Part shown: positions 6,073-24,000 of the stretch, in pieces | How positions within the stretch are numbered: position 1 is the stretch's first letter | Layout of the letters: every line of letters starts with the position of its first letter | From: an uncultured Selenomonadales bacterium | Lineage (GTDB): Bacteria > Bacillota > Negativicutes > DSM-1736 > Dendrosporobacteraceae | Direction of reading: 5' to 3' | Length of the DNA stretch: 24,000 nucleotides | NCBI GenBank assembly: GCA_946407015.1 | Contig: CAMJML010000019.1 | Location: 40,831-64,830, forward strand | Translations under genes and position numbers: made by a program | Notes under the pieces: model-generated | What the model was told of the DNA's origin: nothing | Seen by the model: only the letters and a program-made list of their open reading frames with translations | Databases searched by the model: none

Positions 6073-6093
6073 GGGATTTTAGGGAACGATATT

Positions 6094-6339
6094 GAACCAC
6101 AGAGGGCGCAGAGGACACAGAGGGGTACGGGGGCGCAATGCTATTGCGCCTGGGGTTTATGAATCCGAGGTAGTATGTTGTATGCTTGCTAATTCGTAAT
6201 CCTATTGTTTAAGAACGAAATAATTTAATAGTGGGAAAAGGTTGACCTCAGCCAAGGCTGAGGTTTTTTCTATAAAAAAATCGCAATAAGATTACGACTC
6301 AAAAATCCCACTGTGTCCTCCGTGTCCCCTCTGTGGTTC
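6094..6339. repeat. Copy A of the 9-bp-module inverted-repeat element (MITE-like nested palindrome, about 246 bp)
   Basis: Left arm: GAACCACAGAG GGCGCAGAG GACACAGAG GGG (6094-6125). Right arm: CCCACTGTGTCCTCCGTGTCCCCTCTGTGGTTC (6307-6339). An inner inverted repeat pairs CGTAATCCTATTG (6195-6207) with CAATAAGATTACG (6284-6296). There is a hairpin GGCGCAAT-GCT-ATTGCGCC at 6132-6150. Confidence 0.65.
6246..6269 (+). terminator. Hairpin plus T-run at the centre of repeat copy A
   Basis: CCTCAG-CCAAGG-CTGAGG is followed by TTTTTT. Confidence 0.5.
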
Positions 6340-6516
6340 GATTCCGTTGCAGATATAATTCGCCGGGCCTGGGAATATATATTGGGTAATATGCCTTAGG
6401 GGTAAAAGCACCTTTTAAACAATTGGGGAATAGGCTGACATTGATGAACATTGCTCATGCACGCTGCGTTTTCGTTCACATAGAATGCCTTGGGGGCTAC
6501 AAGAAAGGAAGATGGT

Positions 6517-7952: not shown

Positions 7953-8190
7953 AAGAACCTATTGCTTAGGTCTGTGGTTGAAAGTCGATGCCAGTCGCAG
8001 GCGAAACGATCCACGTAAGGAGTCCAAAAGCGGCTCTGATCATGGTGCGGCTTAGAGGTAAGACCTGCCGGGAATCTTGTACATATTTTATTGCCCGAGA
8101 GTTGAAGTAGTGAGGGGATAGTTCCTAGTAGCGAAACTTCCAGCAGGCGGGTGTGGGGTCAAAGACCAGGTCGGCTAAGCAGTGGTCCTT
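7953..8190 (+). ncRNA. Candidate structured 5' leader or cis-regulatory RNA domain of unknown class upstream of the zinc-ribbon gene
   Basis: About 270 nt separate the predicted TSS from the ATG at 8220, with no ORF. Bases 7953-7969 pair with 8175-8190: 14 Watson-Crick pairs, 1 G-U, 1 mismatch and 1 bulge. This closes a GC-richer domain of about 240 nt. I could not assign a known riboswitch or RNA family. Confidence 0.4.
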
Positions 8191-8686: not shown

Positions 8687-8727
8687 TATTTATGTGAATG
8701 CAATACATATTTGAGGGGGTTCTTATT

Positions 8728-9507
8728 GTGTCAAAAAAGGTGATCGCCTTGATCGTGCTGGGCATGTTTGTACTGGCACTTGGCCTGGCCGGTTGCGGCG
8801 GCCAAAAACAACAGCCGGCTGCACAGGCTAAAGTATTAAAAGTGGGTTCTGATACTGCGTTTGCTCCATTTGAGTTCCAGGATGAAAAAACCAAAGAATA
8901 TGTTGGTTTTGACATGGACTTAATCAAAGCAATCGGGAAACAAATGGGTTATGAAGTGCAAGTTCAAAGTATGAACTTTGACGGACTTATTCCTGCATTA
9001 GAGGCCGGCAATATTGATGCCACTATTTCGGCTATGACCATTACGGATGAACGGGCTCAAAAAGTAAACTTCTCCAAACCATACTACAAATCCGGTTTAA
9101 CCATGGTTGTTAAAACCAATAACGACAGTATTAAATCCTTCAAAGACCTGGAAGGAAAAAGCATTGGCGTTCAAATCGGTACAACCGGTGCCGATGAAGC
9201 TAAAAAAATCAAAAACGCAAAAATTCGTGAGTTCAATACCGCTCCTGAAGCCATCCTGGAACTTAGGGCCGGTGGCGTAGATGCCGTCATTAATGATATG
9301 CCGGTTAATGAATATTATCTGGCTCAAGGTGGCAGCAAAGATGCTAAAAGTGTTGGCGACCGTTTGACTTCCGAAGATTATGGTATTGCGACTGCTAAGA
9401 AAAATACCGAATTAAACGAAAAAATCAATAAAGCCTTAGAAGAGCTGAAGAAAAACGGTGAATATGAAAAAATCTATGTAAAATGGTTTGGTAAAAAACC
9501 TGAATAA
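8728..9507 (+). CDS. Amino acid ABC transporter substrate-binding lipoprotein (polar amino acid, family 3), paralog 1
   Basis: The ORF 8698..9507 is trimmed to the GTG at 8728, 8 nt after RBS GAGGGGG. This gives MSKKVIALIV...LGLAGCGG (signal peptide plus lipobox), parallel to the paralog. The SBP_bac_3-like body has FAPFEF, GFDMDL and NFSKPYY. Confidence 0.85.
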   Translation: MSKKVIALIVLGMFVLALGLAGCGGQKQQPAAQAKVLKVGSDTAFAPFEFQDEKTKEYVGFDMDLIKAIGKQMGYEVQVQSMNFDGLIPALEAGNIDATISAMTITDERAQKVNFSKPYYKSGLTMVVKTNNDSIKSFKDLEGKSIGVQIGTTGADEAKKIKNAKIREFNTAPEAILELRAGGVDAVINDMPVNEYYLAQGGSKDAKSVGDRLTSEDYGIATAKKNTELNEKINKALEELKKNGEYEKIYVKWFGKKPE

Positions 9508-9802: not shown

Positions 9803-10573
9803 TTGTCGAAAAAAATTGCAGCGTTGTTAATCGTTGTCTTGGTGTTCACACTTGGCTTGGTTGGCTGCGGTAAGCAGACCAATACCAGTACGGCCAAAGT
9901 CCTTAAAGTTGGTGCTGAAACCACTTTCCCACCTTTTGAGTTTCAGGATGAAACCAGCAAAGAGTATGTTGGCTTTGACATTGATCTAGCCAAAGCAATC
10001 GGGAAACAAATGGGTTATGAAGTGCAAATTCAAAACATCGGTTTCGACGGTTTAATCCCTGCACTGGATGCCGGGAATATTGATCTGATTGCATCGGCTA
10101 TGTCCATTACGGACGAGCGGGCCAAAAAAGTGAATTTCTCCAAGCCATACTATAAATCCGGTTTATCGATTGTGGTTCAAAGCAGCAATAACACCATTCA
10201 CAGTTTTAAAGATCTTGAAGGCAAAAAAATTGCCGTTCAGATTGGCACCACCTCAGCGGAAGAAGCTCGTAAAATTACCAATGCTCAAGTTCGTGAGTTC
10301 AACAGCAATTCCGAAGCTTACATGGAATTGAAAAACGGCGGTGTGGATGCCGTTGTGAACGACTTACCGGTAAATTCTTACTATTTAACTAAAACCGGCG
10401 GTAAAGATGCCAAGCTGGTAGGCGAAGTAGCTAACGCGGAAGATTATGGTCTGGCGACAGCGAAGAAAAATACTGAACTGAATGAAAAAATTAATAAAGC
10501 CTTAGATGAACTCAAGAAAAACGGTGAATACGATAAAATTTATGTAAAATGGTTTGGCAAAAAGCCTGAATAA
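9803..10573 (+). CDS. Amino acid ABC transporter substrate-binding lipoprotein, paralog 2
   Basis: 256 aa with a TTG start after RBS AGGGGG. The signal peptide and lipobox are TLGLVGCG. It is collinear with paralog 1 along its whole length. Confidence 0.85.
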   Translation: MSKKIAALLIVVLVFTLGLVGCGKQTNTSTAKVLKVGAETTFPPFEFQDETSKEYVGFDIDLAKAIGKQMGYEVQIQNIGFDGLIPALDAGNIDLIASAMSITDERAKKVNFSKPYYKSGLSIVVQSSNNTIHSFKDLEGKKIAVQIGTTSAEEARKITNAQVREFNSNSEAYMELKNGGVDAVVNDLPVNSYYLTKTGGKDAKLVGEVANAEDYGLATAKKNTELNEKINKALDELKKNGEYDKIYVKWFGKKPE

Positions 10574-12658: not shown

Positions 12659-12681
12659 GATTTTATTGAGGAACCCAATTT

Positions 12682-12790
12682 TAACCGCGAAGTACTTGAA
12701 GGACTCAAAGGGGTACGACAATTTCTGGCGCGATATTATCGCGCCGGTTTTTTTGCATTCCCTTAGCGTACGTTGAGTCTTTTGTGGTTA
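12682..12790. repeat. Copy B of the 9-bp-module inverted-repeat element (variant core), enclosing a terminator-like hairpin
   Basis: Left arm: AACCGCGAAG TACTTGAAG GACTCAAAG GGGTACG (12683-12717). Apex hairpin: GGCGCGAT-ATT-ATCGCGCC followed by GGTTTTTTT (12727-12754). Right arm: CCCTTAGCGTACGTTGAGTCTTTTGTGGTTA (12760-12790). Confidence 0.55.
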
Positions 12791-12889
12791 TAAATTGAAC
12801 TTGTCTAAATATTTGTAACTTTTTGATAGGATTTTTTTGTTTTTTGGAGAATAATATAGCTATAGGATACAGGAAAGGGGATGGGTACT

Positions 12890-13426
12890 ATGGCAACATT
12901 TACAGTAAGAGGAAAGAACATTGAAATTACACCAGCATTAAAAGACTATGTAGAAAAACGGGTAGGCAAAGTCACAAAATACTTTGACGCCGTTGGAGAA
13001 ATTACTGTAATCCTGACTGTTGAAAAAGGCCGACATATTGTTGAGGTAACAGTTCCGCTAAATGGTATGTTACTAAGAGGTGAAGAGTCCACCACCGATA
13101 TGTATGCTTCCATTGATCTTGTGCTTGATAAACTGGAAAAACAAATTGAAAAATATAAAACCAAACTGGCCCGTAAATTACGCGCAGGGGTTATGAAGCC
13201 TGATATTGCGGCCAGCTCACTGACTCCGGCTCTGGACGGCGATGAATTCCCGCTGGTTAAAACCAAACGGTTTGCCGTGAAGCCGATGGATGTTCAAGAA
13301 GCCATCATGCAAATGAACCTGATCAACCATGACTTCTACGTATTTACCAACGCCGAAACCGAAGATGTCAACGTAGTCTATCGTCGCAAAGACGGTGCCT
13401 ATGGCTTGATCGAACCAGAACTCTAA
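12890..13426 (+). CDS. hpf: Ribosome hibernation promoting factor, long form
   Basis: The ORF 12881..13426 is trimmed to the ATG at 12890, about 9 nt after GGAAAGGGG. This gives MATFTVRGKNIEITPALKDYVEKR, the canonical HPF/YvyD N-terminus. The C-terminal dimerisation domain is FAVKPMDVQEAIMQMNLINHDFYVF. Confidence 0.9.
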   Translation: MATFTVRGKNIEITPALKDYVEKRVGKVTKYFDAVGEITVILTVEKGRHIVEVTVPLNGMLLRGEESTTDMYASIDLVLDKLEKQIEKYKTKLARKLRAGVMKPDIAASSLTPALDGDEFPLVKTKRFAVKPMDVQEAIMQMNLINHDFYVFTNAETEDVNVVYRRKDGAYGLIEPEL

Positions 13427-14137: not shown

Positions 14138-15664
14138 ATGACAGACAGAAAATTTACACGTCGTAATTTCATTAAGGCTTTAGGCGGGGCAAGTGTGGTT
14201 GGTGCCGGCGCTGTTGTGGCCGGCTGTGCCAGCGAACCGGCCGGTGGCAAAGGGTGGATGCCCAATCAATATAATGTTGCGGCCAACTGGCCGGTACAGG
14301 TTAAAGGCCGGGTGCCGATTGACAGCAGCAATCCGGCAATTGACCGGGATGACACCAAGTGCATTCTCTGCGGTCAGTGCCTCGAAGTGTGCAAAAATGT
14401 GGTGTCCGTATATGGCTACTATGAATTGCCGATCCAAAATGACATTACCTGTATCCATTGCGGCCAATGTACCATGTGGTGCCCGACAGGAGCCATTACC
14501 GAACGCAATGAGATCAAGAAGGTTCAAGCCGCATTAGCGAGTGCCGATCAGCATGTTATTGTGCAAACAGCGCCGGCCATCCGGGTGGCTTTGGGCGAGG
14601 AGTTCAATTTACCGCCAGGCAGCTTAGTGCAGGGCCAGCAGGTAACCGCCTTAAAAAAGGCCGGTTTTGATGCGGTCTTTGATACCAGTTGGAGTGCTGA
14701 TCTTACCATTATGGAAGAAGCCTCCGAGTTGATTAAGAGGCTGACCACAGGTAAAGCTTTGCCGCACTTTACTTCGTGCTGCCCGGGCTGGGTAAAGTTT
14801 GCCGAATATTTCTATGCCGACTTACAGCCCCATCTTTCCTCCTGTAAATCGCCACAGCAAATGCTGGGTGCTGTGGCTAAATCATACTATGCCAAAGAGA
14901 AAGGAATTGCGCCTGAACAAATTTTTTCCGTGGCAGTCATGCCGTGCACGGCGAAAAAATTTGAATGCCAGCGCCCGGAAATGAATGCGGCCGGCATTTT
15001 ACGGGGTAATCCGGCTATCCGTGATGTTGATGTTGTTTTAACAACCCGTGAGCTGGCCAATCTGTTAAAGTCGAATGGCATTGATCTGAGCCGCTTGGTC
15101 GACACACCTTATGATTCAGTACTTGGCGAGAGTACCGGAGCGGGAGTGATTTTTGGCGCCACCGGCGGGGTGACGGAAGCGGCGGTACGGACCGCTTACT
15201 ATCTGGTTACCCGTCAAGATCCGCCGGCTGCATTGCTGCAATGGGAAAATGTACGGGGATTGAAGGGCGTTAAAGAAGCCAGTGTTGAGCTTCCAGGGGT
15301 CGGGACAGTCAAAGTGGCGGTTTGCCACGGCCTCAGGGATGCCCGGGTGGTTCTCGAAAAGGTCCGCAAACAGCAGTCCGACTGGCACTTTATTGAGTTT
15401 ATGGCCTGCCCGGGCGGCTGTATTGGCGGCGGCGGTCAGCCCCGTACTTCGCTGCCGCCTTCGGATGAGGTACGCAAGGCCAGAATGGCAAATCTTTATA
15501 AGCTGGATGGAACAGCCGTCAAGCGGGCCAGTTACCAAAATAAAGAAGTGATGGACTTATATCAGAAATTTTTGCATGCTCCGCTCAGCGAGGAGTCGGA
15601 AAGCCTGCTGCATACCCATTATGTTGATCGTAGTCATCAACTAAAACCTAAAGAGAAAGTGTAA
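14138..15664 (+). CDS. Tat-exported [FeFe]-hydrogenase, large subunit fused to a small-subunit-like C-terminal domain; possible lipoprotein
   Basis: 508 aa. The Tat motif is TRRNFIK, followed by an h-region and VVAGC (lipobox-like). There are two 4Fe-4S motifs (CILCGQCLEVC, CIHCGQCTMWCP). The H-cluster motifs are FTSCCPGW, MPCTAKKFE and EFMACPGGCIGGGGQP. The C-terminal DLYQKFLHAPLSEESESLLHTHYVDRS parallels the separate small subunit at 19086. Confidence 0.9.
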   Translation: MTDRKFTRRNFIKALGGASVVGAGAVVAGCASEPAGGKGWMPNQYNVAANWPVQVKGRVPIDSSNPAIDRDDTKCILCGQCLEVCKNVVSVYGYYELPIQNDITCIHCGQCTMWCPTGAITERNEIKKVQAALASADQHVIVQTAPAIRVALGEEFNLPPGSLVQGQQVTALKKAGFDAVFDTSWSADLTIMEEASELIKRLTTGKALPHFTSCCPGWVKFAEYFYADLQPHLSSCKSPQQMLGAVAKSYYAKEKGIAPEQIFSVAVMPCTAKKFECQRPEMNAAGILRGNPAIRDVDVVLTTRELANLLKSNGIDLSRLVDTPYDSVLGESTGAGVIFGATGGVTEAAVRTAYYLVTRQDPPAALLQWENVRGLKGVKEASVELPGVGTVKVAVCHGLRDARVVLEKVRKQQSDWHFIEFMACPGGCIGGGGQPRTSLPPSDEVRKARMANLYKLDGTAVKRASYQNKEVMDLYQKFLHAPLSEESESLLHTHYVDRSHQLKPKEKV

Positions 15665-15675
15665 GGAGGGAGCGC

Positions 15676-16509
15676 ATGTCTAAAGGCGTTTTAGTTGATA
15701 TCACAAAATGTATTGGCTGTGGGAGCTGTACCGTAGCGTGTAAGATGTGGAATAAATTAGAATATGATCAAAATGTTTCCTCGATTGGTGAGACAGCCAA
15801 GCTCAACGATAAAAACTGGACGGTAGTGACCCGGACTTCTGCTCAGGATAGCAAAGGCCAGGCTGTTTGGCGTTTTGCCAAGCAGCAATGCATGCATTGC
15901 CTGGAGCCGGCCTGTGCATCGGCCTGTTTTTCACGGGCTTTGCAGCGCAATGCCGATGGTGCTGTGGAATATTACCCAGACCTTTGTGTGGGTTGCCGCT
16001 ATTGTATGATTGCCTGTCCGTTTGATGTGCCCAAATACGAATGGAGTAAAGCGGCACCGCTCATTACCAAATGCCAGCTTTGCTCAACGCGGGTGGCCAA
16101 AGGGGAAGCGCCGGCCTGTGTGGCGGTATGTCCCACCGGTGTCATGAAGTTTGGTGACCGCCAGGAGCTGTTGCAGGAAGCCCATCAACTCATTCGCCGG
16201 GAAGACCTGTATCTGAAAACCGTTTACGGTGAAAAAGAAGTAGGCGGTACATGCTGGCTGTATATTTCCGATATTCCGTTTGATCAGCTTGGCTTTAAGA
16301 GTGGTCTGGGGTCTGTGGCACTGCCTTCTTATACGCACAGCTTTTTAAAAAATGTTCCCATCATTGCGTTAGGGTGGGGTGTATTGCTGACCGGGATGTC
16401 GTTCTATGCCCGGCGCCGCAATGAGCTGGCTAAAGCCAGGCAAGAGCGGTTAGCAGGAAAAAATGGTGAGGGGGATGCAGATGCAGACGACTTCGATGAA
16501 GAGGCTTGA
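15676..16509 (+). CDS. 4-cluster iron-sulfur subunit with a C-terminal membrane anchor (HybA/NrfC/FdnH-like)
   Basis: 277 aa. The Cys groups are CIGCGSCTVAC, CMHCLEPACASAC, CVGCRYCMIACP and CQLC...CVAVCP. There is one hydrophobic helix (VPIIALGWGVLLTGMSFYA), then a charged tail. RBS AAGGAGGG. No signal peptide is present. Confidence 0.85.
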   Translation: MSKGVLVDITKCIGCGSCTVACKMWNKLEYDQNVSSIGETAKLNDKNWTVVTRTSAQDSKGQAVWRFAKQQCMHCLEPACASACFSRALQRNADGAVEYYPDLCVGCRYCMIACPFDVPKYEWSKAAPLITKCQLCSTRVAKGEAPACVAVCPTGVMKFGDRQELLQEAHQLIRREDLYLKTVYGEKEVGGTCWLYISDIPFDQLGFKSGLGSVALPSYTHSFLKNVPIIALGWGVLLTGMSFYARRRNELAKARQERLAGKNGEGDADADDFDEEA

Positions 16510-17659
16510 GCTGTTTGGCTGGAAGTTTACCATCACACCTGCCCGCAAAATCTTAACGATTATCGCCGCTTTAAGCATTGGGGCCATGGCAATCCGCCTG
16601 ATTACCGGCTTCAGTTTATTGACGAACTTGAATGATGACTGGCCCTGGGGGCTTTGGATTGCGTTTGACGTACTGACCGGGGTGGCATTAGCCGGAGGCG
16701 GCTATTCCACGGCTTTAATCGTGCATATTCTGCACCGCGACAAATATCATCCGGTAGCCAGGGGGGCGCTGTTGACATCCTTGCTGGGCTATATCCTGGT
16801 TATGGCCGGCTTATTTCTGGATATCGGTCAATGGTTTAATTTCTGGCGTCCCTTTGTTTCCTGGGGACATGCGTCGGTATTGTTTGAAGTCTTCTGGTGC
16901 ATCAGCATTTATACGACCATCCAGGTCCTTGAGTTCGGGGAAATTGTTACCGAGAAAATTGGTCTTCGGCTGCACCGGTTTTTCAAAAAAATCCTTCCTG
17001 TGCTCATGATTATCGGGGTGGTATTCCCGACCCTGCATCAGTCCTCTTTGGGCGCGTTGTTTTTGATTGCCGTCCACAAGGTATATCCATTATGGTGGAC
17101 GGAGTATCTGCCGGTATTTTTCCTGATGTCGTCTTTCTTCATCGGGCCGGCCATGGTCTGTGTCGAGTCAGCCTTGGCGGGGAAGTTTTTTGGTCATAAG
17201 GTTTCGCTTAATGTCCTGACCGGCCTGGCCCGCATTAGCGGTCGGATGATGGTATTGTACTTGGGGCTGAAAATTTATGATTTAATTGAACGGGGGCAAT
17301 GGCAGTTAGCCTTTTTAGGCAATCTTGAAGGCAATATGTTTTTGCTGGAAATGATTGCCGGGGTTGCGCTGCCAATCGGGATTGTCTTCAGCCGCTATGG
17401 CAAGACTCGCAAAGGGTTGCTGGTATACGGAGTATTGACCAGCGGCGGGGTGATCCTCAACCGGATGAACACGGTATTTACCTCAATGGTCAGTTATTCA
17501 AGCGGGGCCTACTTCCCGTCCATCTGGGAATTTATTGTTAGTATCGGCTTGATTGCAATTGGCTGTTTGTTATATAGTTTTATTGTTGAGAACTTTAATA
17601 TTTTCGATCATCATCCGTCTCAGCCTAAAGATGAAAATACGAAAAACCTGTCAGCATAA
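16481..17659 (+). CDS. NrfD/HybB/PsrC-family integral membrane (quinone-interacting) subunit
   Basis: The ORF 16463..17659 has candidate ATG starts at 16463, 16475, 16481 and 16496. I chose 16481, which is 6 nt after GAGGGGG. The protein is polytopic (about 8-10 hydrophobic helices by eye). The start overlaps the end of the FeS gene, suggesting translational coupling. Confidence 0.8.
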   Translation: MQTTSMKRLELFGWKFTITPARKILTIIAALSIGAMAIRLITGFSLLTNLNDDWPWGLWIAFDVLTGVALAGGGYSTALIVHILHRDKYHPVARGALLTSLLGYILVMAGLFLDIGQWFNFWRPFVSWGHASVLFEVFWCISIYTTIQVLEFGEIVTEKIGLRLHRFFKKILPVLMIIGVVFPTLHQSSLGALFLIAVHKVYPLWWTEYLPVFFLMSSFFIGPAMVCVESALAGKFFGHKVSLNVLTGLARISGRMMVLYLGLKIYDLIERGQWQLAFLGNLEGNMFLLEMIAGVALPIGIVFSRYGKTRKGLLVYGVLTSGGVILNRMNTVFTSMVSYSSGAYFPSIWEFIVSIGLIAIGCLLYSFIVENFNIFDHHPSQPKDENTKNLSA

Positions 17660-17670
17660 AAAAGCAAAAA

Positions 17671-17709
17671 AAGCAAGGGGGAAATGCACATTTCCCCCTT
17701 GCTTTTTTT
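17671..17709 (+). terminator. Strong rho-independent terminator separating the two hydrogenase operons
   Basis: A 14-bp stem AAGCAAGGGGGAAA / TTTCCCCCTTGCTT encloses loop TGCACA and is followed by TTTTT. Confidence 0.85.
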
Positions 17710-17813: not shown

Positions 17814-19073
17814 ATGAAGGGATTTCAAGCTAATGAACAAACGAACATTATTGAAATTAACCGTAAGAAATGTAAAGGCTGTGATTCGTGCAAATCCTTC
17901 TGCCCGTCAGCTGCTATTCAAGGCAAATATGGAGCTATTCATTCGATTAATTCGGAACAATGTATATTTTGCGGACAATGTTTAATCAATTGTCCGTTTG
18001 GTTCAATCGAAGATACTGTCGATGCTGTGGAATCTGTTATAGCTAAGCTGCGCAATCAACAATTGACCGTTGTGGCGACGATTGCGCCGTCTGTCCGGGT
18101 CGCGATCGGCGAAGAGTTTGGCATGAAGCCGGGTACTTTAGCGACAGAACAGCTCTATGGAGCCTTAAAGCAAGCCGGGTTTAAAATTTTTGACACCAAT
18201 TTTGCCGCTGACCACACCATTATGGAGGAAGGCAGCGAGCTGATCGCTAAAATCCGCCATTATCTATTAGGAGAGCCGGCCGAGCATGAATTGGGTGCTT
18301 TGCCGCAGTTTACATCTTGCTGTCCGGGCTGGGTTCGTTATGTCGAACTGTATGCGCCGGAAATCCTCCCGCATTTGTCTTCCGCCAAATCCCCGATGAT
18401 GATGGCCGGAGCACTGGCTAAAACGTACGGTGCTACGGATATTTGGCATGTCCGGCCGGAAAACATGGTTGTTGTTGGAGTGATGCCCTGTACCAGTAAA
18501 AAATTTGAGGCCTCCCGGCCTGAGTTTAGCAGTGCGGCGCATTATTGGCAGCAGCGTGGCGGGACGGCACATTATCCTGATGTGGACGTTGTGCTGACAA
18601 CCCGTGATCTTGCCCGGCTATTTAAAAAGCTGAATATTGATCTCAATCAGGTAGAACCCTTTACGGATGCCGACAATCCATTGGCTCAATACAGCGGTGC
18701 CGGCACGATTTTCGGCAACACCGGCGGCGTGATGGAAGCCGCCCTCAGAACAGCTTATTTTGTGATTACCGGACAAGAGCTGCCTTTTCTGGAATATACG
18801 CCGGTGCGCGGTCTCAAAGGCCTGAAAGAGGCTGAGGTTACACTGAAGGATGCCAAGACCGGCAAGGTAATTAACTTAAAGGTGGCGGTTGTCCATGGCA
18901 TCAAAGAAAACTTGAAACCAGTGATCGAGCAAGTGGCGGCCGGGCGATCTCCTTACCATTTTATTGAGGTCATGAACTGTCCGGGAGGCTGTGTCAACGG
19001 GGGAGGTCAGCCTATTAATCCGATGGGAACCTCCTGGACCGGAAACTGGAAAGCGTTATTACCTTGGACATAG
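17814..19073 (+). CDS. hydA: Periplasmic-type [FeFe]-hydrogenase large subunit (no signal peptide)
   Basis: 419 aa. There are two 4Fe-4S motifs (CKGCDSCKSFCP, CIFCGQCLINCP). The H-cluster motifs are FTSCCPGW, MPCTSKKFE and EVMNCPGGCVNGGGQP. RBS GAGGAGG. The protein ends shortly after the H-cluster motif, as in Desulfovibrio HydA. Confidence 0.9.
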   Translation: MKGFQANEQTNIIEINRKKCKGCDSCKSFCPSAAIQGKYGAIHSINSEQCIFCGQCLINCPFGSIEDTVDAVESVIAKLRNQQLTVVATIAPSVRVAIGEEFGMKPGTLATEQLYGALKQAGFKIFDTNFAADHTIMEEGSELIAKIRHYLLGEPAEHELGALPQFTSCCPGWVRYVELYAPEILPHLSSAKSPMMMAGALAKTYGATDIWHVRPENMVVVGVMPCTSKKFEASRPEFSSAAHYWQQRGGTAHYPDVDVVLTTRDLARLFKKLNIDLNQVEPFTDADNPLAQYSGAGTIFGNTGGVMEAALRTAYFVITGQELPFLEYTPVRGLKGLKEAEVTLKDAKTGKVINLKVAVVHGIKENLKPVIEQVAAGRSPYHFIEVMNCPGGCVNGGGQPINPMGTSWTGNWKALLPWT

Positions 19074-19085
19074 GAGGGCAAGCCA

Positions 19086-19397
19086 ATGGCACATTATGAT
19101 TATGTAGAAAAAGCGGTCAATGTATCCAGGCGGGAATTTCTGGGGATGGTCGGAGTTGCCGGGGCTATTCTCTGGACAGGTGCCTATGCCGCAACCGATC
19201 TAGTGCAGGACCGCAATAAATATATTAAGATGCGGGCCCAGGGAATTTATAAAGATGACGTGAAGGCCAAAGTCAGGCAAAGTCATCATAATCCGGGGCT
19301 AAAGGACATGTATCAGAAATTTGCCGGTCAGCCGCTCAGCCCTTTGGCGGAAGAGTTGTTTCATACCCGCTATATTGACCGGACAAGGCTAGGTTAA
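19086..19397 (+). CDS. hydB: [FeFe]-hydrogenase small subunit with Tat signal peptide
   Basis: 103 aa. The Tat motif is SRREFLG, followed by an h-region ending AYA. The C-terminal DMYQKFAGQPLSPLAEELFHTRYIDRT matches the small-subunit signature. RBS AGGAGGG. Confidence 0.85.
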   Translation: MAHYDYVEKAVNVSRREFLGMVGVAGAILWTGAYAATDLVQDRNKYIKMRAQGIYKDDVKAKVRQSHHNPGLKDMYQKFAGQPLSPLAEELFHTRYIDRTRLG

Positions 19398-19427
19398 TGG
19401 ATTAATCAAAATTAGGGTGGTGATCTG

Positions 19428-20132
19428 ATGAGTCATCCTGAACAAGGACTGCGGGTCCTTAAACATTCCTTGCGTTCACGGCTGTTTCACTGGGGTTTGA
19501 TTTTAGGCTTTATGCCGGCTGCCATTACCGGGTTTATTCTGTGGCTCAAACTCGGCAGCGATGATTTTGTAAATTTGGCCATGAAGATTCATATTGTTGG
19601 GGCGGTCATTTTTACGGTGTCTTCCTTGCTGTATGTAATAGTTGCTTTTGACCGGGTAATCGCTTTTGTGAGGCTGATTTGGACCTGGGATGACCGGGAC
19701 ATCGGCTGGATGCTGACCGGGGGCGGGTATCCGCAAAAGATGCTGCTGGGTAAGGAAATTGATGTACCGCCGATGGATAAACTGAATTCAGGCCAGAAAA
19801 TTTTTGGGATTTGCGTGTCGATCGGCGGCCTGCTGCTCATTGTGACCGGCTGGATCTTATATTCCTTTATCCCGCTGGCACCCAAGGCTTTTATTCATGG
19901 AGCGGATTTGGTGCATATGGCTTTCGGGGTATTCTTAGGGCTATTCATGTTTGTGCATATTTTTCTGGGGCTTTATAACTGGAGTGAGTTTAAAGCCATG
20001 TTCGGCGATGGTACCCAGCTGCTTAGTGAAGTGGAGCATCATAATCCGCTTTATGCGGCTAACAAGTTGGAGAGGGCAACCCATCCTGATGCGGATGAGC
20101 CAATCGGGGTGCCTAGTTGTAAAGTTGAATAG
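19428..20132 (+). CDS. b-type cytochrome membrane subunit (HyaC/FdnI-like, 4 helices)
   Basis: 234 aa. Hydrophobic helices carry conserved His in LFHWGL, KIHIVG, LVHMAFG and FVHIFLG. RBS GGGTGGTGA. Confidence 0.8.
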   Translation: MSHPEQGLRVLKHSLRSRLFHWGLILGFMPAAITGFILWLKLGSDDFVNLAMKIHIVGAVIFTVSSLLYVIVAFDRVIAFVRLIWTWDDRDIGWMLTGGGYPQKMLLGKEIDVPPMDKLNSGQKIFGICVSIGGLLLIVTGWILYSFIPLAPKAFIHGADLVHMAFGVFLGLFMFVHIFLGLYNWSEFKAMFGDGTQLLSEVEHHNPLYAANKLERATHPDADEPIGVPSCKVE

Positions 20133-20142
20133 CATTTGTGAA

Positions 20143-20165
20143 ACCAGCTTGCGGGCTGGTTTTTT
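20143..20165 (+). terminator. Rho-independent terminator of hydrogenase operon 2
   Basis: ACCAGC-TTGCGG-GCTGGT is followed by TTTTT. Confidence 0.8.
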
Positions 20166-20185
20166 GTTTTGGGGAGTGTTTAGTT

Positions 20186-20321
20186 TGGTGCTGTGCCTTT
20201 TGTAGTTCGTTGGGGATGGCGGCGGGGAATTCTGCCGCTACGGACGTTCCTTACGCCGTTACCGGCAGCCAAGCTGCCGACGGCTGTAGTCACAAGTCCC
20301 GCGGCAGAAATCCCCGCCGCC
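20186..20321. repeat. Giant palindrome unit 1 (degenerate core, 21-bp outer stem)
   Basis: The outer stem pairs GGCGGCGGGGAATTCTGCCGC (20218-20238) with GCGGCAGAAATCCCCGCCGCC (20301-20321), with 1 mismatch. The inner left arm is identical to unit 2. The inner right arm has diverged by substitutions and small indels. Bases 20186-20279 form a direct repeat of 20411-20498. Confidence 0.75.
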
Positions 20322-20364
20322 AGTGCCGTGGGTTTATCTTTTTTAATACCTTTTCCTCCAGTAG

Positions 20365-20385
20365 CCTTTGTGTCCTCTGCGATTC
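20365..20385. repeat. Solo right-arm fragment of the 9-bp-module repeat family
   Basis: CCTTTGTGTCCTCTGCGATTC has the reverse complement GAATCGCAGAG GACACAAAG G, which matches the arm modules of copies A and C. Confidence 0.4.
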
Positions 20386-20410
20386 AATAATCATTCCTTT
20401 GTGCTTAATA

Positions 20411-20558
20411 TGGTGCCTTTTTAGTTCGCTGGGGGTGGTGACGGGGAATTCTGTCGCTACGGACGTTCCTTACGCCGTTACCGGCAGCCAAGCTGCCGGT
20501 AACGGCGTAGGGAACGTCCGTAGCAGTGGATTTTGCTGCCGCCGGCAATAAGCGAACT
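20411..20558. repeat. Giant palindrome unit 2 (33-bp near-perfect stem, 3-nt loop, within a roughly 136-bp imperfect palindrome)
   Basis: Bases 20456-20488 (GCTACGGACGTTCCTTACGCCGTTACCGGCAGC), loop CAA, and 20492-20524 form 32 Watson-Crick pairs plus one T:G (20470:20510). The outer flanks AGTTCGCT (20423-20430) and AGCGAACT (20551-20558) also pair. Confidence 0.8.
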
Positions 20559-20660
20559 TAGTGTGTCAAGCCCTTTTTTAATTTCTCGTTTTTATCTTGT
20601 TCATATATTATCGATTCAACATGCATATACTAACTTTATGGATTCGGGGAATGGACGTTT

Positions 20661-20689
20661 TTGACTTATTGGGATTTGTCTGTTAAAAT
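20661..20689 (+). promoter_or_regulatory. Promoter TTGACT-N17-(TGt)TAAAAT for secA
   Basis: Hexamers and the extended -10 TG were read directly from the sequence. Confidence 0.55.
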
Positions 20690-20749
20690 TCTACAATAGG
20701 GATAATAATGCATATTATTAAAAATGTGCCAATTTGGGAGTGATACTGG

Positions 20750-23260: not shown

Positions 23261-23270
23261 GAACAGGTTT

Positions 23271-23387
23271 AACCGCAGAGGACACAGAGTACGCAGAGGG
23301 AAATCGGAGGAATTAGAACGCGGTCGTAACCGCGTTAAGGATCATTAAGATCTTAAATCCTCTGCGATCTCTGCGTACTCTGCGGTT
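23271..23387. repeat. Copy C of the 9-bp-module inverted-repeat element, between secA and prfB
   Basis: Left arm: AACCGCAGAG GACACAGAG TACGCAGAG GG (23271-23300). Central hairpin: AACGCGGT-CGTA-ACCGCGTT (23317-23336). Right arm: CCTCTGCGATCTCTGCGTACTCTGCGGTT (23359-23387), followed by CATAAGTTTTTAT. Confidence 0.65.
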
Positions 23388-23417
23388 CATAAGTTTTTAT
23401 CTTAAGGAGTTGAGACA

Positions 23418-24000
23418 ATGCTTTTGGAAGATTTACGGGTGCAAATTGCCGATATGGAAAAGAAGCTTGACGAAATGAGGGCTTCACTTTGACATAGCCG
23501 GCAAAGAAGAGAAAATTGCCGAGTTAGAGTATAAGATCAGCGAGCCGGGCTTTTGGGATGCTCCTGAGCAGGCCCAGCAGGTGATGCAAGAGCTGACAGG
23601 AATAAAAGACGCCGTTCAGCAATACAATAGTTTGTATGAACAGCATAGCGATATGGCTATCTTATGGCAGCTTGGCATGGAAGACAATGACGAGAGTGTC
23701 TACGCGGATGTCGTCGCTTCTCTCAAGTCCATTGCCAGGGATATTGAACAGTTGGAATTAACGCTGATGCTGTCCGGCGAATATGACGCCAATAATGCCA
23801 TCTTGACACTGCATGCCGGAGCGGGTGGAACTGAAGCCCAGGACTGGGCGCAAATGCTATTGCGCATGTATGTCCGCTGGGCGGAGAAAAATGGTTTTAA
23901 AGTGGAAACCATGGACTTTCTGGCCGGTGATGAAGCGGGTGTGAAAAGTGCAACCCTGTTGATCTCAGGCCGCAATGCTTATGGCTATTTAAAATCAGAA
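23418..24000 (+). CDS. prfB: Peptide chain release factor 2, with programmed +1 frameshift; 3' end outside window
   Basis: RBS AAGGAG. Frame 0 (23418-23489) encodes MLLEDLRVQIADMEKKLDEMRASL and then meets an in-frame TGA at 23490-23492. The +1 frame from 23491 reads DIAGKEEKIAELEYKISEPGFWDAPEQAQQ...TLHAGAGGTEAQDWAQML and is open to base 24000. Confidence 0.9.
23477..23493 (+). promoter_or_regulatory. prfB recoding site: internal SD-like GAGGG, then CTT TGA C
   Basis: The canonical CUU UGA C slippery/stop context is at 23487-23493. GAGGG lies 5 nt upstream. Confidence 0.85.

Follow-up and report, generated by a model that had tools for sequence, protein, structure and literature searches.

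The spacer between a cytochrome b gene and secA in an uncultured Selenomonadales bacterium (positions 20186-20558 of the 24,000-nt stretch of DNA analyzed here, hereafter the window) contains two tandem copies of an imperfect hairpin of approximately 118 nt, spaced 219 bp, the second of which is rebuilt in this strain around a 69-nt perfect palindrome. Comparison with other strains of the species points to the perfect palindrome as the derived form and to the hairpin of the first copy (unit 1) as the intact one. The palindrome is probably a recent, strain-specific product of template switching, which rewrote the second copy (unit 2) of a conserved hairpin, and not a maintained device. The hairpin itself appears, from the sequences compared, to be a conserved and as yet unnamed element with a sporadic, low-copy distribution in Bacillota, and this family is of higher interest than the palindrome.

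The arms of the unit 2 palindrome (20456-20524, assigned to neither strand), as established by an inverted-repeat scan and a count of pairs, occupy 20456-20488 and 20492-20524 and form a 33-bp stem of 32 Watson-Crick pairs and one T:G pair (20470:20510) around the loop CAA, in agreement with the initial annotation of this hairpin. Its nesting in an imperfect palindrome of about 136 bp (20423-20558) was likewise borne out, the centroid fold closing the latter with an outermost 8-bp stem on the + strand formed by AGTTCGCT (20423-20430) and AGCGAACT (20551-20558). The arm pattern was matched in 0 of 100 shuffles of the window. Unit 1 (20212-20328, + strand) has an outer stem (20217-20238 and 20301-20322) of 22 nt, rather than the 21 bp first described, which is 95% complementary, and its conserved asymmetric core (approximately 20239-20300, + strand) lies between the arms of that stem. 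The two units share a direct repeat of 81 nt (20199-20279 and 20418-20498, 93% identical), in which the identical tract noticed earlier is real and extends to 44 nt (20236-20279) instead of 43. A T-rich run, TTTATCTTTTTT (20333-20344, + strand), follows some 10 nt past the unit 1 hairpin in the alignment of units and is not called as a terminator. Unit 2 spans 20431-20551 on the + strand, with its 5' half intact and its 3' half overwritten.

Other strains were represented by contigs from a dozen public runs that carry the same cytochrome b or SecA protein and have flanks 99.5-99.95% identical to the window. Three alleles of the spacer occur among these contigs: a long imperfect form, a short form and the perfect palindrome of the window. 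The long imperfect allele is seen in JGI 3300044606 (L013), which has both units, the right arm of unit 2 being imperfect like that of unit 1 and followed by the T-run; the imperfect right arm of unit 2 also starts contigs from ERR8665802 (L018) and SRR26782606 (L021), and two ENA contigs (L006 and L016) contain unit 1 with the beginning of unit 2. From the short allele, present in six runs (SRR18006926-31), exactly 304 bp are absent, and its junction reads GGGGAATT-CTGCCGC-CGGCAATAAG, the heptamer CTGCCGC being found in the window at 20232 and 20536. For SRR18006930 and SRR18006931, contigs that end at CTGCCGC hint at a branching of the assembly graph. The perfect palindrome occurs only in the window, with 0 further cases in other assemblies of the species.

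The polarity of the change follows from the comparison of units as well as of strains. The right arm of unit 1, ACGGCTGTAGTCACAAGTCCCGCGGCAGAAATCCCCGCCGCC, is imperfect in every strain, the window included, and closely matches the right arm of unit 2 in the other strains, the whole units being about 88% identical. Since this imperfect arm is common to unit 1, which acts as a paralogous outgroup, and to unit 2 of the other strains, the imperfect form predates the duplication. In unit 2 of the window, 38 nt stand in place of 69 nt, as judged from alignment to unit 2 of L013 and k-mer tracing. The first 26 of these (20499-20524, + strand), which are strain-specific and take the place of the conserved core ACGGCTGTGGTCACAAGTCCCGCGACAGAAAACCCCGTCACC, are the reverse complement of 20456-20481 with one base off, and the last 12, AGTGGATTTTGC, are unique to this strain. 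The left outer arm of unit 2, GGTGACGGGGAATTCTGTCG, is retained in the window and differs from that of unit 1 at three positions, each with a compensatory change in the right arm of the other strains; the partner right arm, CGACAGAAAACCCCGTCACC, is found only in those strains. A left arm that is kept while its complement survives only elsewhere marks unit 2 of the window as derived. The T-run that follows unit 2 in the other strains is also missing here according to the alignment of units. Scoring with two covariance models, one built from three intact units (R1) and one representing the family (R2), gave 143 bits (R1) and 130 bits (R2) for unit 1, which has the same form as both units elsewhere, and 58.3 bits (R2) for unit 2 of the window vs. 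126.4 for the intact unit 2 of L013, or 58 vs. 126-130 bits for intact copies overall. Thus, the polarity suggested by the initial annotation, in which the right arm of unit 1 had decayed, has to be reversed: unit 1 is the conserved form and unit 2 the altered one. The same annotation had viewed the palindrome as either very recent or maintained; its recency is favored by the strain-specific and derived nature of the perfect form, and the idea of maintenance fails on the loss of the conserved 3' core.

The simplest route to this allele begins with a DNA-synthesis error in the second copy in the sequenced strain. The nascent strand would have folded back at the tip of the hairpin, with GCTGCCG pairing to CGGCAGC, copied its own left arm for approximately 26 nt and rejoined the template further downstream. 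In this way the T-run and the right outer arm would have been overwritten along with the conserved 3' half, and a quasipalindrome would have become a 33-bp perfect palindrome. The single T:G pair may have arisen by substitution afterwards or reflect a template that differed at this base, and for the compensatory differences between copies 1 and 2 either the same kind of correction, templated by an arm, or selection for pairing could be responsible. The entry point of the switch does fit the microhomology at the tip. Palindromes that are lethal in Escherichia coli are far larger than a 33-bp stem with a 3-nt loop, which makes a recent origin with temporary survival plausible. The case resembles the quasipalindrome template switches known from E. 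coli studies in the one-step passage from imperfect to perfect, in new bases that are the reverse complement of the opposite arm, and in multi-base "compensatory" changes that arise without selection; it differs in a converted tract (26 nt) and a final stem (33 bp) that exceed what is usual for the class, in an unclean return junction, and in having cost a conserved motif rather than mended a stem. Template switching has been described as both creating and repairing hairpins and proposed to maintain stems and mimic compensatory evolution (PMC8794818), and in Proteobacteria correction preferentially makes imperfect inverted repeats perfect, a process proposed to account for the excess and the conservation of the perfect ones (PMC5941160). 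The hazard posed by palindromes rises with longer and more similar arms and with shorter spacers (PMC7999016).

Two observations weigh against this scenario. First, no single clean switch from an L013-type allele yields the return junction (CCGTAGC followed by AGTGGATTTTGC), and we therefore have to assume at least one further small change or deletion, or a different ancestral flank. Second, the perfect palindrome rests on a single assembly, which raises the question of an assembly or library artefact: the real unit 2 would then be imperfect, reading ...GCTGCCGACGGCTGTGGTCACAAGTCCC..., and the palindrome would come from chimeric fold-back reads or from mis-assembly at a hairpin-prone repeat. 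Confinement of the palindrome to the window would suit such an origin, as would the fact that several short-read contigs of the species end inside or beside the units, so that the region is evidently hard to assemble; polymerases used in library preparation can, moreover, switch templates at hairpins just as well. Nevertheless, we regard an artefact as unlikely. The palindrome is internal to its contig and the collinear flank resumes after 26-33 nt, so that two switches would be required. Neither strand of the imperfect allele contains joining k-mers such as GCAGCCAAGCTGCCGGTAAC, which hence, as far as the sequences allow one to infer, must exist in the reads, and the next 12 nt, AGTGGATTTTGC, are likewise unique to the strain. 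This strain is also set apart from all others at the flank 20168-20195, which argues for an independent lineage that could have its own allele. In these 28 nt before unit 1 the window reads GGGGAGTGTTTAGTTTGGTGCTGTGCC vs. GAGGGAAATGTTAGAGTTAGTACTGTGCC in all other strains (compared with L001 and L013); the kilobases around them differ by <0.5% between strains, and this burst of changes adjoins the hairpin.

An opposite possibility is that the perfect palindrome is maintained for a function: it may be selected as an RNA hairpin, insulate secA from the hydrogenase operon or act there as a super-terminator, or be bound by a dimeric protein. Folding of both strands of the 375-nt region, a check suggested in the initial annotation, could be taken to favor it, with a very stable structure on the + strand (-196.9 kcal/mol, z -13) vs. 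-169.7 kcal/mol (z -8) on the - strand, both far more stable than shuffled sequence. In addition, the sole non-Watson-Crick pair of the palindrome is G:U on the + strand, and the units are positioned between two transcription units. We consider this explanation highly implausible, however, as the palindrome is absent from all other strains, in which the units are imperfect or lacking altogether although the SecA and cytochrome b proteins are identical; it displaces sequence that is invariant in the family; its T-run is lost; and a real terminator exists upstream and is conserved. Indeed, the short-allele strains, with their identical cytochrome b and SecA proteins, indicate that the entire hairpin array is dispensable. 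The G:T bias noted at the outset holds within this lineage, where the + strand folds better by 27 kcal/mol and G:U pairs occupy four stem positions, but disappears in the family at large, where G:U and A:C account for 3 cells each, and it is therefore weak evidence for a + strand RNA.

Both borders of this variable region are well defined. On the left is the intrinsic terminator of the cytochrome b gene (20140-20171, + strand; 20140-20163 in the terminator scan), a stem-loop with a T-run, both kept in all relatives; it was the only terminator found by the scan, none being called at the units. On the right, from about 20612 on, the limit is set by a block containing the secA promoter and leader (20612-20749, + strand; TTGACT-17 nt-TAAAAT at 20661-20689 in the promoter scan), which is nearly invariant in five related genomes. 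The placement of the units between a terminator and the secA promoter, as initially described, is thus confirmed, and both signals are conserved in relatives, all of which (among those examined) have the cytochrome b-secA synteny. Sequence comparison suggests that the stretch between the terminator and the promoter block is free to vary.

The short allele most likely reflects a deletion in another lineage. Slippage between the two CTGCCGC repeats (20232-20238 and 20536-20542, + strand, identified by comparison of the alleles) would have removed 304 bp and spared only the 5' outer arm of copy 1. The right repeat lies within TGCCGCCGG, a sequence similar to the outer arm, at its 3' end, of the hairpin copy in a sister species (L025). 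A long-range inverted repeat of 62 nt, 82% complementary, holds the 7-nt repeats in its two arms. In this respect the event resembles slipped-strand deletion of inverted repeats (PMC7999016), with 7-nt direct repeats placed in the arms of an inverted repeat, the difference being that here we deal with a natural polymorphism in metagenomes and not with an experimental measurement. The reverse view, in which the short allele is an ancestral empty site into which a hairpin of the type of miniature inverted-repeat transposable elements (MITEs) or palindrome-associated transposable elements (PATEs) was inserted with a TGCCGC target duplication, draws on the fact that TGCCGC/CTGCCGC borders the extra DNA as a 6-7-bp target duplication would, on the presence of short elements at the same spot in relatives, and on single-nucleotide polymorphisms that place the short-allele strain as sister to the remaining strains. 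The last point counts against our reading to the extent that phylogeny alone does not polarize short vs. long; rooting of the strain tree with an outgroup was dropped, the sites being saturated and the polarity equivocal. An insertion is nonetheless quite improbable. The 5' outer arm, GGTGGCGGCGGGGAATTCTGCCGC, is already part of the short allele and has a homologue in the 5' arm of the hairpin in L025, which identifies this allele as a deletion and not as an empty site. The presumed insert, in turn, would need to bring an exact complement of the host flank plus a second copy of 45 nt of that flank; terminal inverted repeats are lacking from the extra 304-bp segment, whose boundary falls inside a hairpin arm; and nhmmer does not recognize the short allele as one of the CACAGAG elements discussed below.

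Evidence that the hairpin is a family in its own right comes from copies at other loci. R1 found a full-length match in L025 (81 bits, E 5e-13; 107 bits with R2), located at a different place, between two solute-binding-protein genes, and missing at that site from the closest relative of L025 (L011). A gapped core pattern retrieved further copies from metagenomes, namely L031, L029 (partial) and L027 (with an insertion of approximately 65 nt at an internal loop); together with L025, L032 and L034, these are members of the family at unrelated loci, in line with the earlier proposal that the hairpin is dispersed rather than bound to one locus, now upheld by the covariance model matches. L027 belongs in or near Zhaonellaceae. 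Within one Zhaonellaceae species with identical MazG, the mazG-wecB spacer is 51, 99, 302 or 344 nt long, and the hairpin is present in the two long versions only. At these filled sites the core is partly decayed, and the flanks are direct repeats of about 25 nt made of the local heptamer-repeat DNA; the copies in L032 and L034 have decayed cores. At loci orthologous to the L031 neighborhood, beside a YkwD gene, the hairpin was not found.

An alignment of eight sequences reveals a nearly invariant, asymmetric core, C.TACGCCGTTACCG ... CGACGGCTG.G...CAAGTCCCGC, and outer and apical stems that vary in sequence while keeping their pairing. Paired cells amount to 93.8% vs. 85.0% in shuffles (33-49% in slid controls), and 13 of the 33 pairs are changed on both sides vs. 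6.9 in shuffles, the observed values being reached by 0 of 500 shuffles.

Other searches delimit the distribution and identity of the element. R2 applied to 286 kb of other loci detected no further copy, leaving one locus per species sampled. The exact pattern ACGTTCCYTACGCCGTTACC gave 3 chance matches within coding sequence in genome contigs and nothing in metagenome or viral contigs; it is too specific, missing the GCTCC variant of L025. The gapped core pattern gave nothing in viral contigs, and blastn of both units against plasmids and phages had no match. A protein search with concatenated open reading frame (ORF) translations of the units was without match and the exact ORFs are absent from the protein collection, so that nothing suggests that the hairpin derives from a gene or has been called as a spurious ORF elsewhere. 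Rfam 15 has no matching family (only hairpin-shaped miRNA precursors and Hammerhead_HH9, far below gathering scores), and ARAGORN reported no tRNA or tmRNA. Resemblances of the core to RNase P CR-I/CR-V, tRNA T-arms, twister and hairpin ribozymes concern short motifs, are unsupported by Rfam and ARAGORN, and were set aside. An integron attC site was also rejected, with no R''/R' boxes and no integrase nearby.

Several features were recorded around these copies. The window itself has tandem solute-binding-protein genes at 8698-9507 and 9803-10573 with 78-87% identical DNA (repeats D1 and D2), and the L025 hairpin occupies the spacer between the orthologues of that pair. On L031, a c-di-AMP riboswitch (RF00379, 81.6 bits; 1183-1406, - strand) precedes a YkwD/CAP-domain gene, whose 3' flank holds the hairpin copy. 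Heptamer arrays were recorded on L032 (12 sites in 20 kb), L033, L034 and L027 and on L038 (10300-10460). In the Zhaonellaceae contigs the majority of intergenic spacers hold GGYGACT heptamers in tandem, nearly always on the coding strand, with CAGCTAK and GGCTGAC arrays instead in Zhaonella formicivorans. These arrays recall the intergenic TAACTGA direct repeats reported in Beggiatoaceae (PMC4679880).

As to the nature of the hairpin, we lean toward a selfish hairpin element, acting as single-stranded DNA or as a passenger RNA, over a small-RNA gene. Three points speak against this preference: the copies are few, a single locus in each species sampled and nothing in the 286 kb elsewhere; no target duplication and no transposase were found in the DNA examined; and the invariant asymmetric core and the internal-loop insertion of L027 would equally suit a structured RNA. 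Low copy number together with the lack of defined ends also argues against a classical MITE.

A structured small RNA or 3'-UTR (untranslated region) element on the + strand, with a protein- or ligand-binding core, retains an appreciable minority chance, and the window would then represent a natural knock-out of one of two copies. It would account for the invariant asymmetric core with its conserved bulges, the covariation of outer and apical stems, the tolerance of a ~65-nt insertion at the internal loop of L027, and the preservation of the core between Negativicutes and Zhaonellaceae, and the copies are co-oriented with the upstream neighbor gene in the window, L025, L027/L032/L034 and L031. 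Less compatible with an RNA gene, and in favor of a selfish or passenger element, are the lack of a promoter-like site before the copies and of terminator calls at the window units, L031, L034 and L025, the absence of a conserved gene neighbor, the presence/absence pattern among strains and sister species in every lineage examined, the decayed cores in L032 and L034 along with the tandem duplication, the dispensability of the array in short-allele strains with identical cytochrome b and SecA, the lack of a G:U excess family-wide and the lack of an Rfam family match. Somewhat more tentatively, the hairpin may be an undescribed structured element of Bacillota, either RNA or single-stranded DNA, defined by an invariant asymmetric core of about 50 nt around a variable stem-loop and by covarying outer stems, low in copy number and gained or lost between close relatives. 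Under that possibility, conservation of the core from Negativicutes to Zhaonellaceae would imply a conserved trans-acting partner, and the window would be a natural experiment with one copy intact and one inactivated by template switching.

Comparison with known repeat classes revealed partial likenesses as well as substantial differences. ERIC/IRU sequences of enterobacteria are imperfect intergenic palindromes of approximately 120-130 nt with a conserved core, variable internal insertions and no known transposase. The hairpin is similar in size, intergenic location by co-oriented genes, conserved core, insertions, patchy presence and lack of a known transposase; it differs in having no sequence similarity to ERIC/IRU, in its host phylum (Bacillota), in a copy number that looks much lower, and in a center that is both the most conserved part and asymmetric. 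With REP/REPIN-RAYT systems it has in common the character of GC-rich intergenic hairpin repeats, and each outer arm contains a small palindrome of its own, so that the long hairpin looks like an inverted doublet, as REPINs do. In REPINs, however, the arms are conserved and the spacer variable, whereas here the center is invariant, the arms are variable and copy number is not high; no RAYT gene turned up in the DNA examined, in which no search aimed at RAYT was made. PATEs derived from IS200/IS605 likewise have similar hairpins in the same orientation some 200 bp from each other, and a strand-specific asymmetric hairpin would suit recognition of single-stranded DNA. PATE hairpins, on the other hand, are subterminal and only ~20-30 nt long, and here the indel boundary cuts a hairpin arm. 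The present hairpin is 4-5x longer than the known LE/RE hairpins of IS200/IS605, and the locus has no conserved target tetranucleotide and no Y1 transposase identified in the DNA examined. The MITE- or PATE-like identity proposed initially could not be sustained, as no target duplication, high copy number or transposase could be demonstrated. In terms of MITE hallmarks (terminal repeats and a target duplication), the ~25-nt direct repeats at the Zhaonellaceae sites are not a short target duplication, and in terms of an intrinsic terminator, the T-run does not directly follow the unit 1 hairpin but starts ~10 nt beyond it, and unit 2 of the window has none.

The spacer is, at the same time, a site of a second, MITE-like family, here called CACAGAG, with elements of approximately 100-250 nt that have inverted ends of three CRCAGAGNN nonamers, a small GC hairpin (e.g., GCGCGATGTTATCGCGC) and an A/T-rich stretch. 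This family is very abundant, occupying nearly every intergenic spacer in related Sporomusaceae contigs (7 copies in 20.7 kb of L011), and is seen in the window, L011, L022, L013 and L018. Copies in the window were located by pattern and nhmmer searches at 6091-6341, 12679-12791 and 23267-23391. A solo right-end arm (20348-20389, + strand), 20 nt after unit 1, matches the pattern with 2 mismatches and has weak nhmmer support (E 0.04-0.1); it corresponds to the solo arm of another repeat family reported earlier between the units, which was recovered at 20365-20381. The same cytochrome b-secA spacer carries a CACAGAG element of ~120 nt in BFN5, L011 and L025 and one arm only in FL31, consistent with the initial suggestion of a hotspot for repeat elements. 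The hairpin units are not recognized by nhmmer as CACAGAG members, and an interpretation of the short allele as a degenerate member of this family likewise found no nhmmer support and was rejected. Degenerate nonamers flank the L025 hairpin copy; the L031, L027 and L029 copies are without such arms.

Additional features of the window concern its other genes and RNAs. A full-length raiA motif RNA is encoded at 7961-8183 on the + strand (Rfam RF03072, 192 bits vs. a gathering score of 101). Two adjacent paralogous [FeFe]-hydrogenase gene sets (14138-17659 and 17814-20132; repeats D4-D6 at 73-80% identity) have between them an inverted repeat of two perfectly matching 21-bp arms 2 nt apart (AAAAAAAGCAAGGGGGAAATG / CATTTCCCCCTTGCTTTTTTT; 17666-17709), flanked by A- and T-runs like a bidirectional terminator. 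Only the second set is present in L011 and L025 and both are present in BFN5 and FL31. Exact-protein matches assign the window to an uncultured member of the Sporomusaceae (Negativicutes), and its hydrogenase clusters at 90% or more with Sporomusaceae bacterium FL31 and bacterium BFN5. The hydrogenase block lies between hpf (12881-13426) and secA, which are neighboring genes in Bacillus. Early in the release-factor gene downstream of secA, the motif CTTTGAC (23487-23493) presumably represents a classic prfB +1 programmed frameshift site.

Overall, the spacer provides a natural allele series within one species, comprising an imperfect hairpin, a perfect palindrome and a deletion, and offers a view of palindrome-driven mutation at work in a wild bacterial population. 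It also calls for caution, since perfect stems and "compensatory" changes can come from templated mutation without selection, as argued previously (PMC8794818). The hairpin motif, which lies outside Rfam and recurs in distant Bacillota, may prove the more rewarding subject: a census of its copies could bring to light either a small RNA not described before or a new kind of mobile hairpin along with its protein partner.

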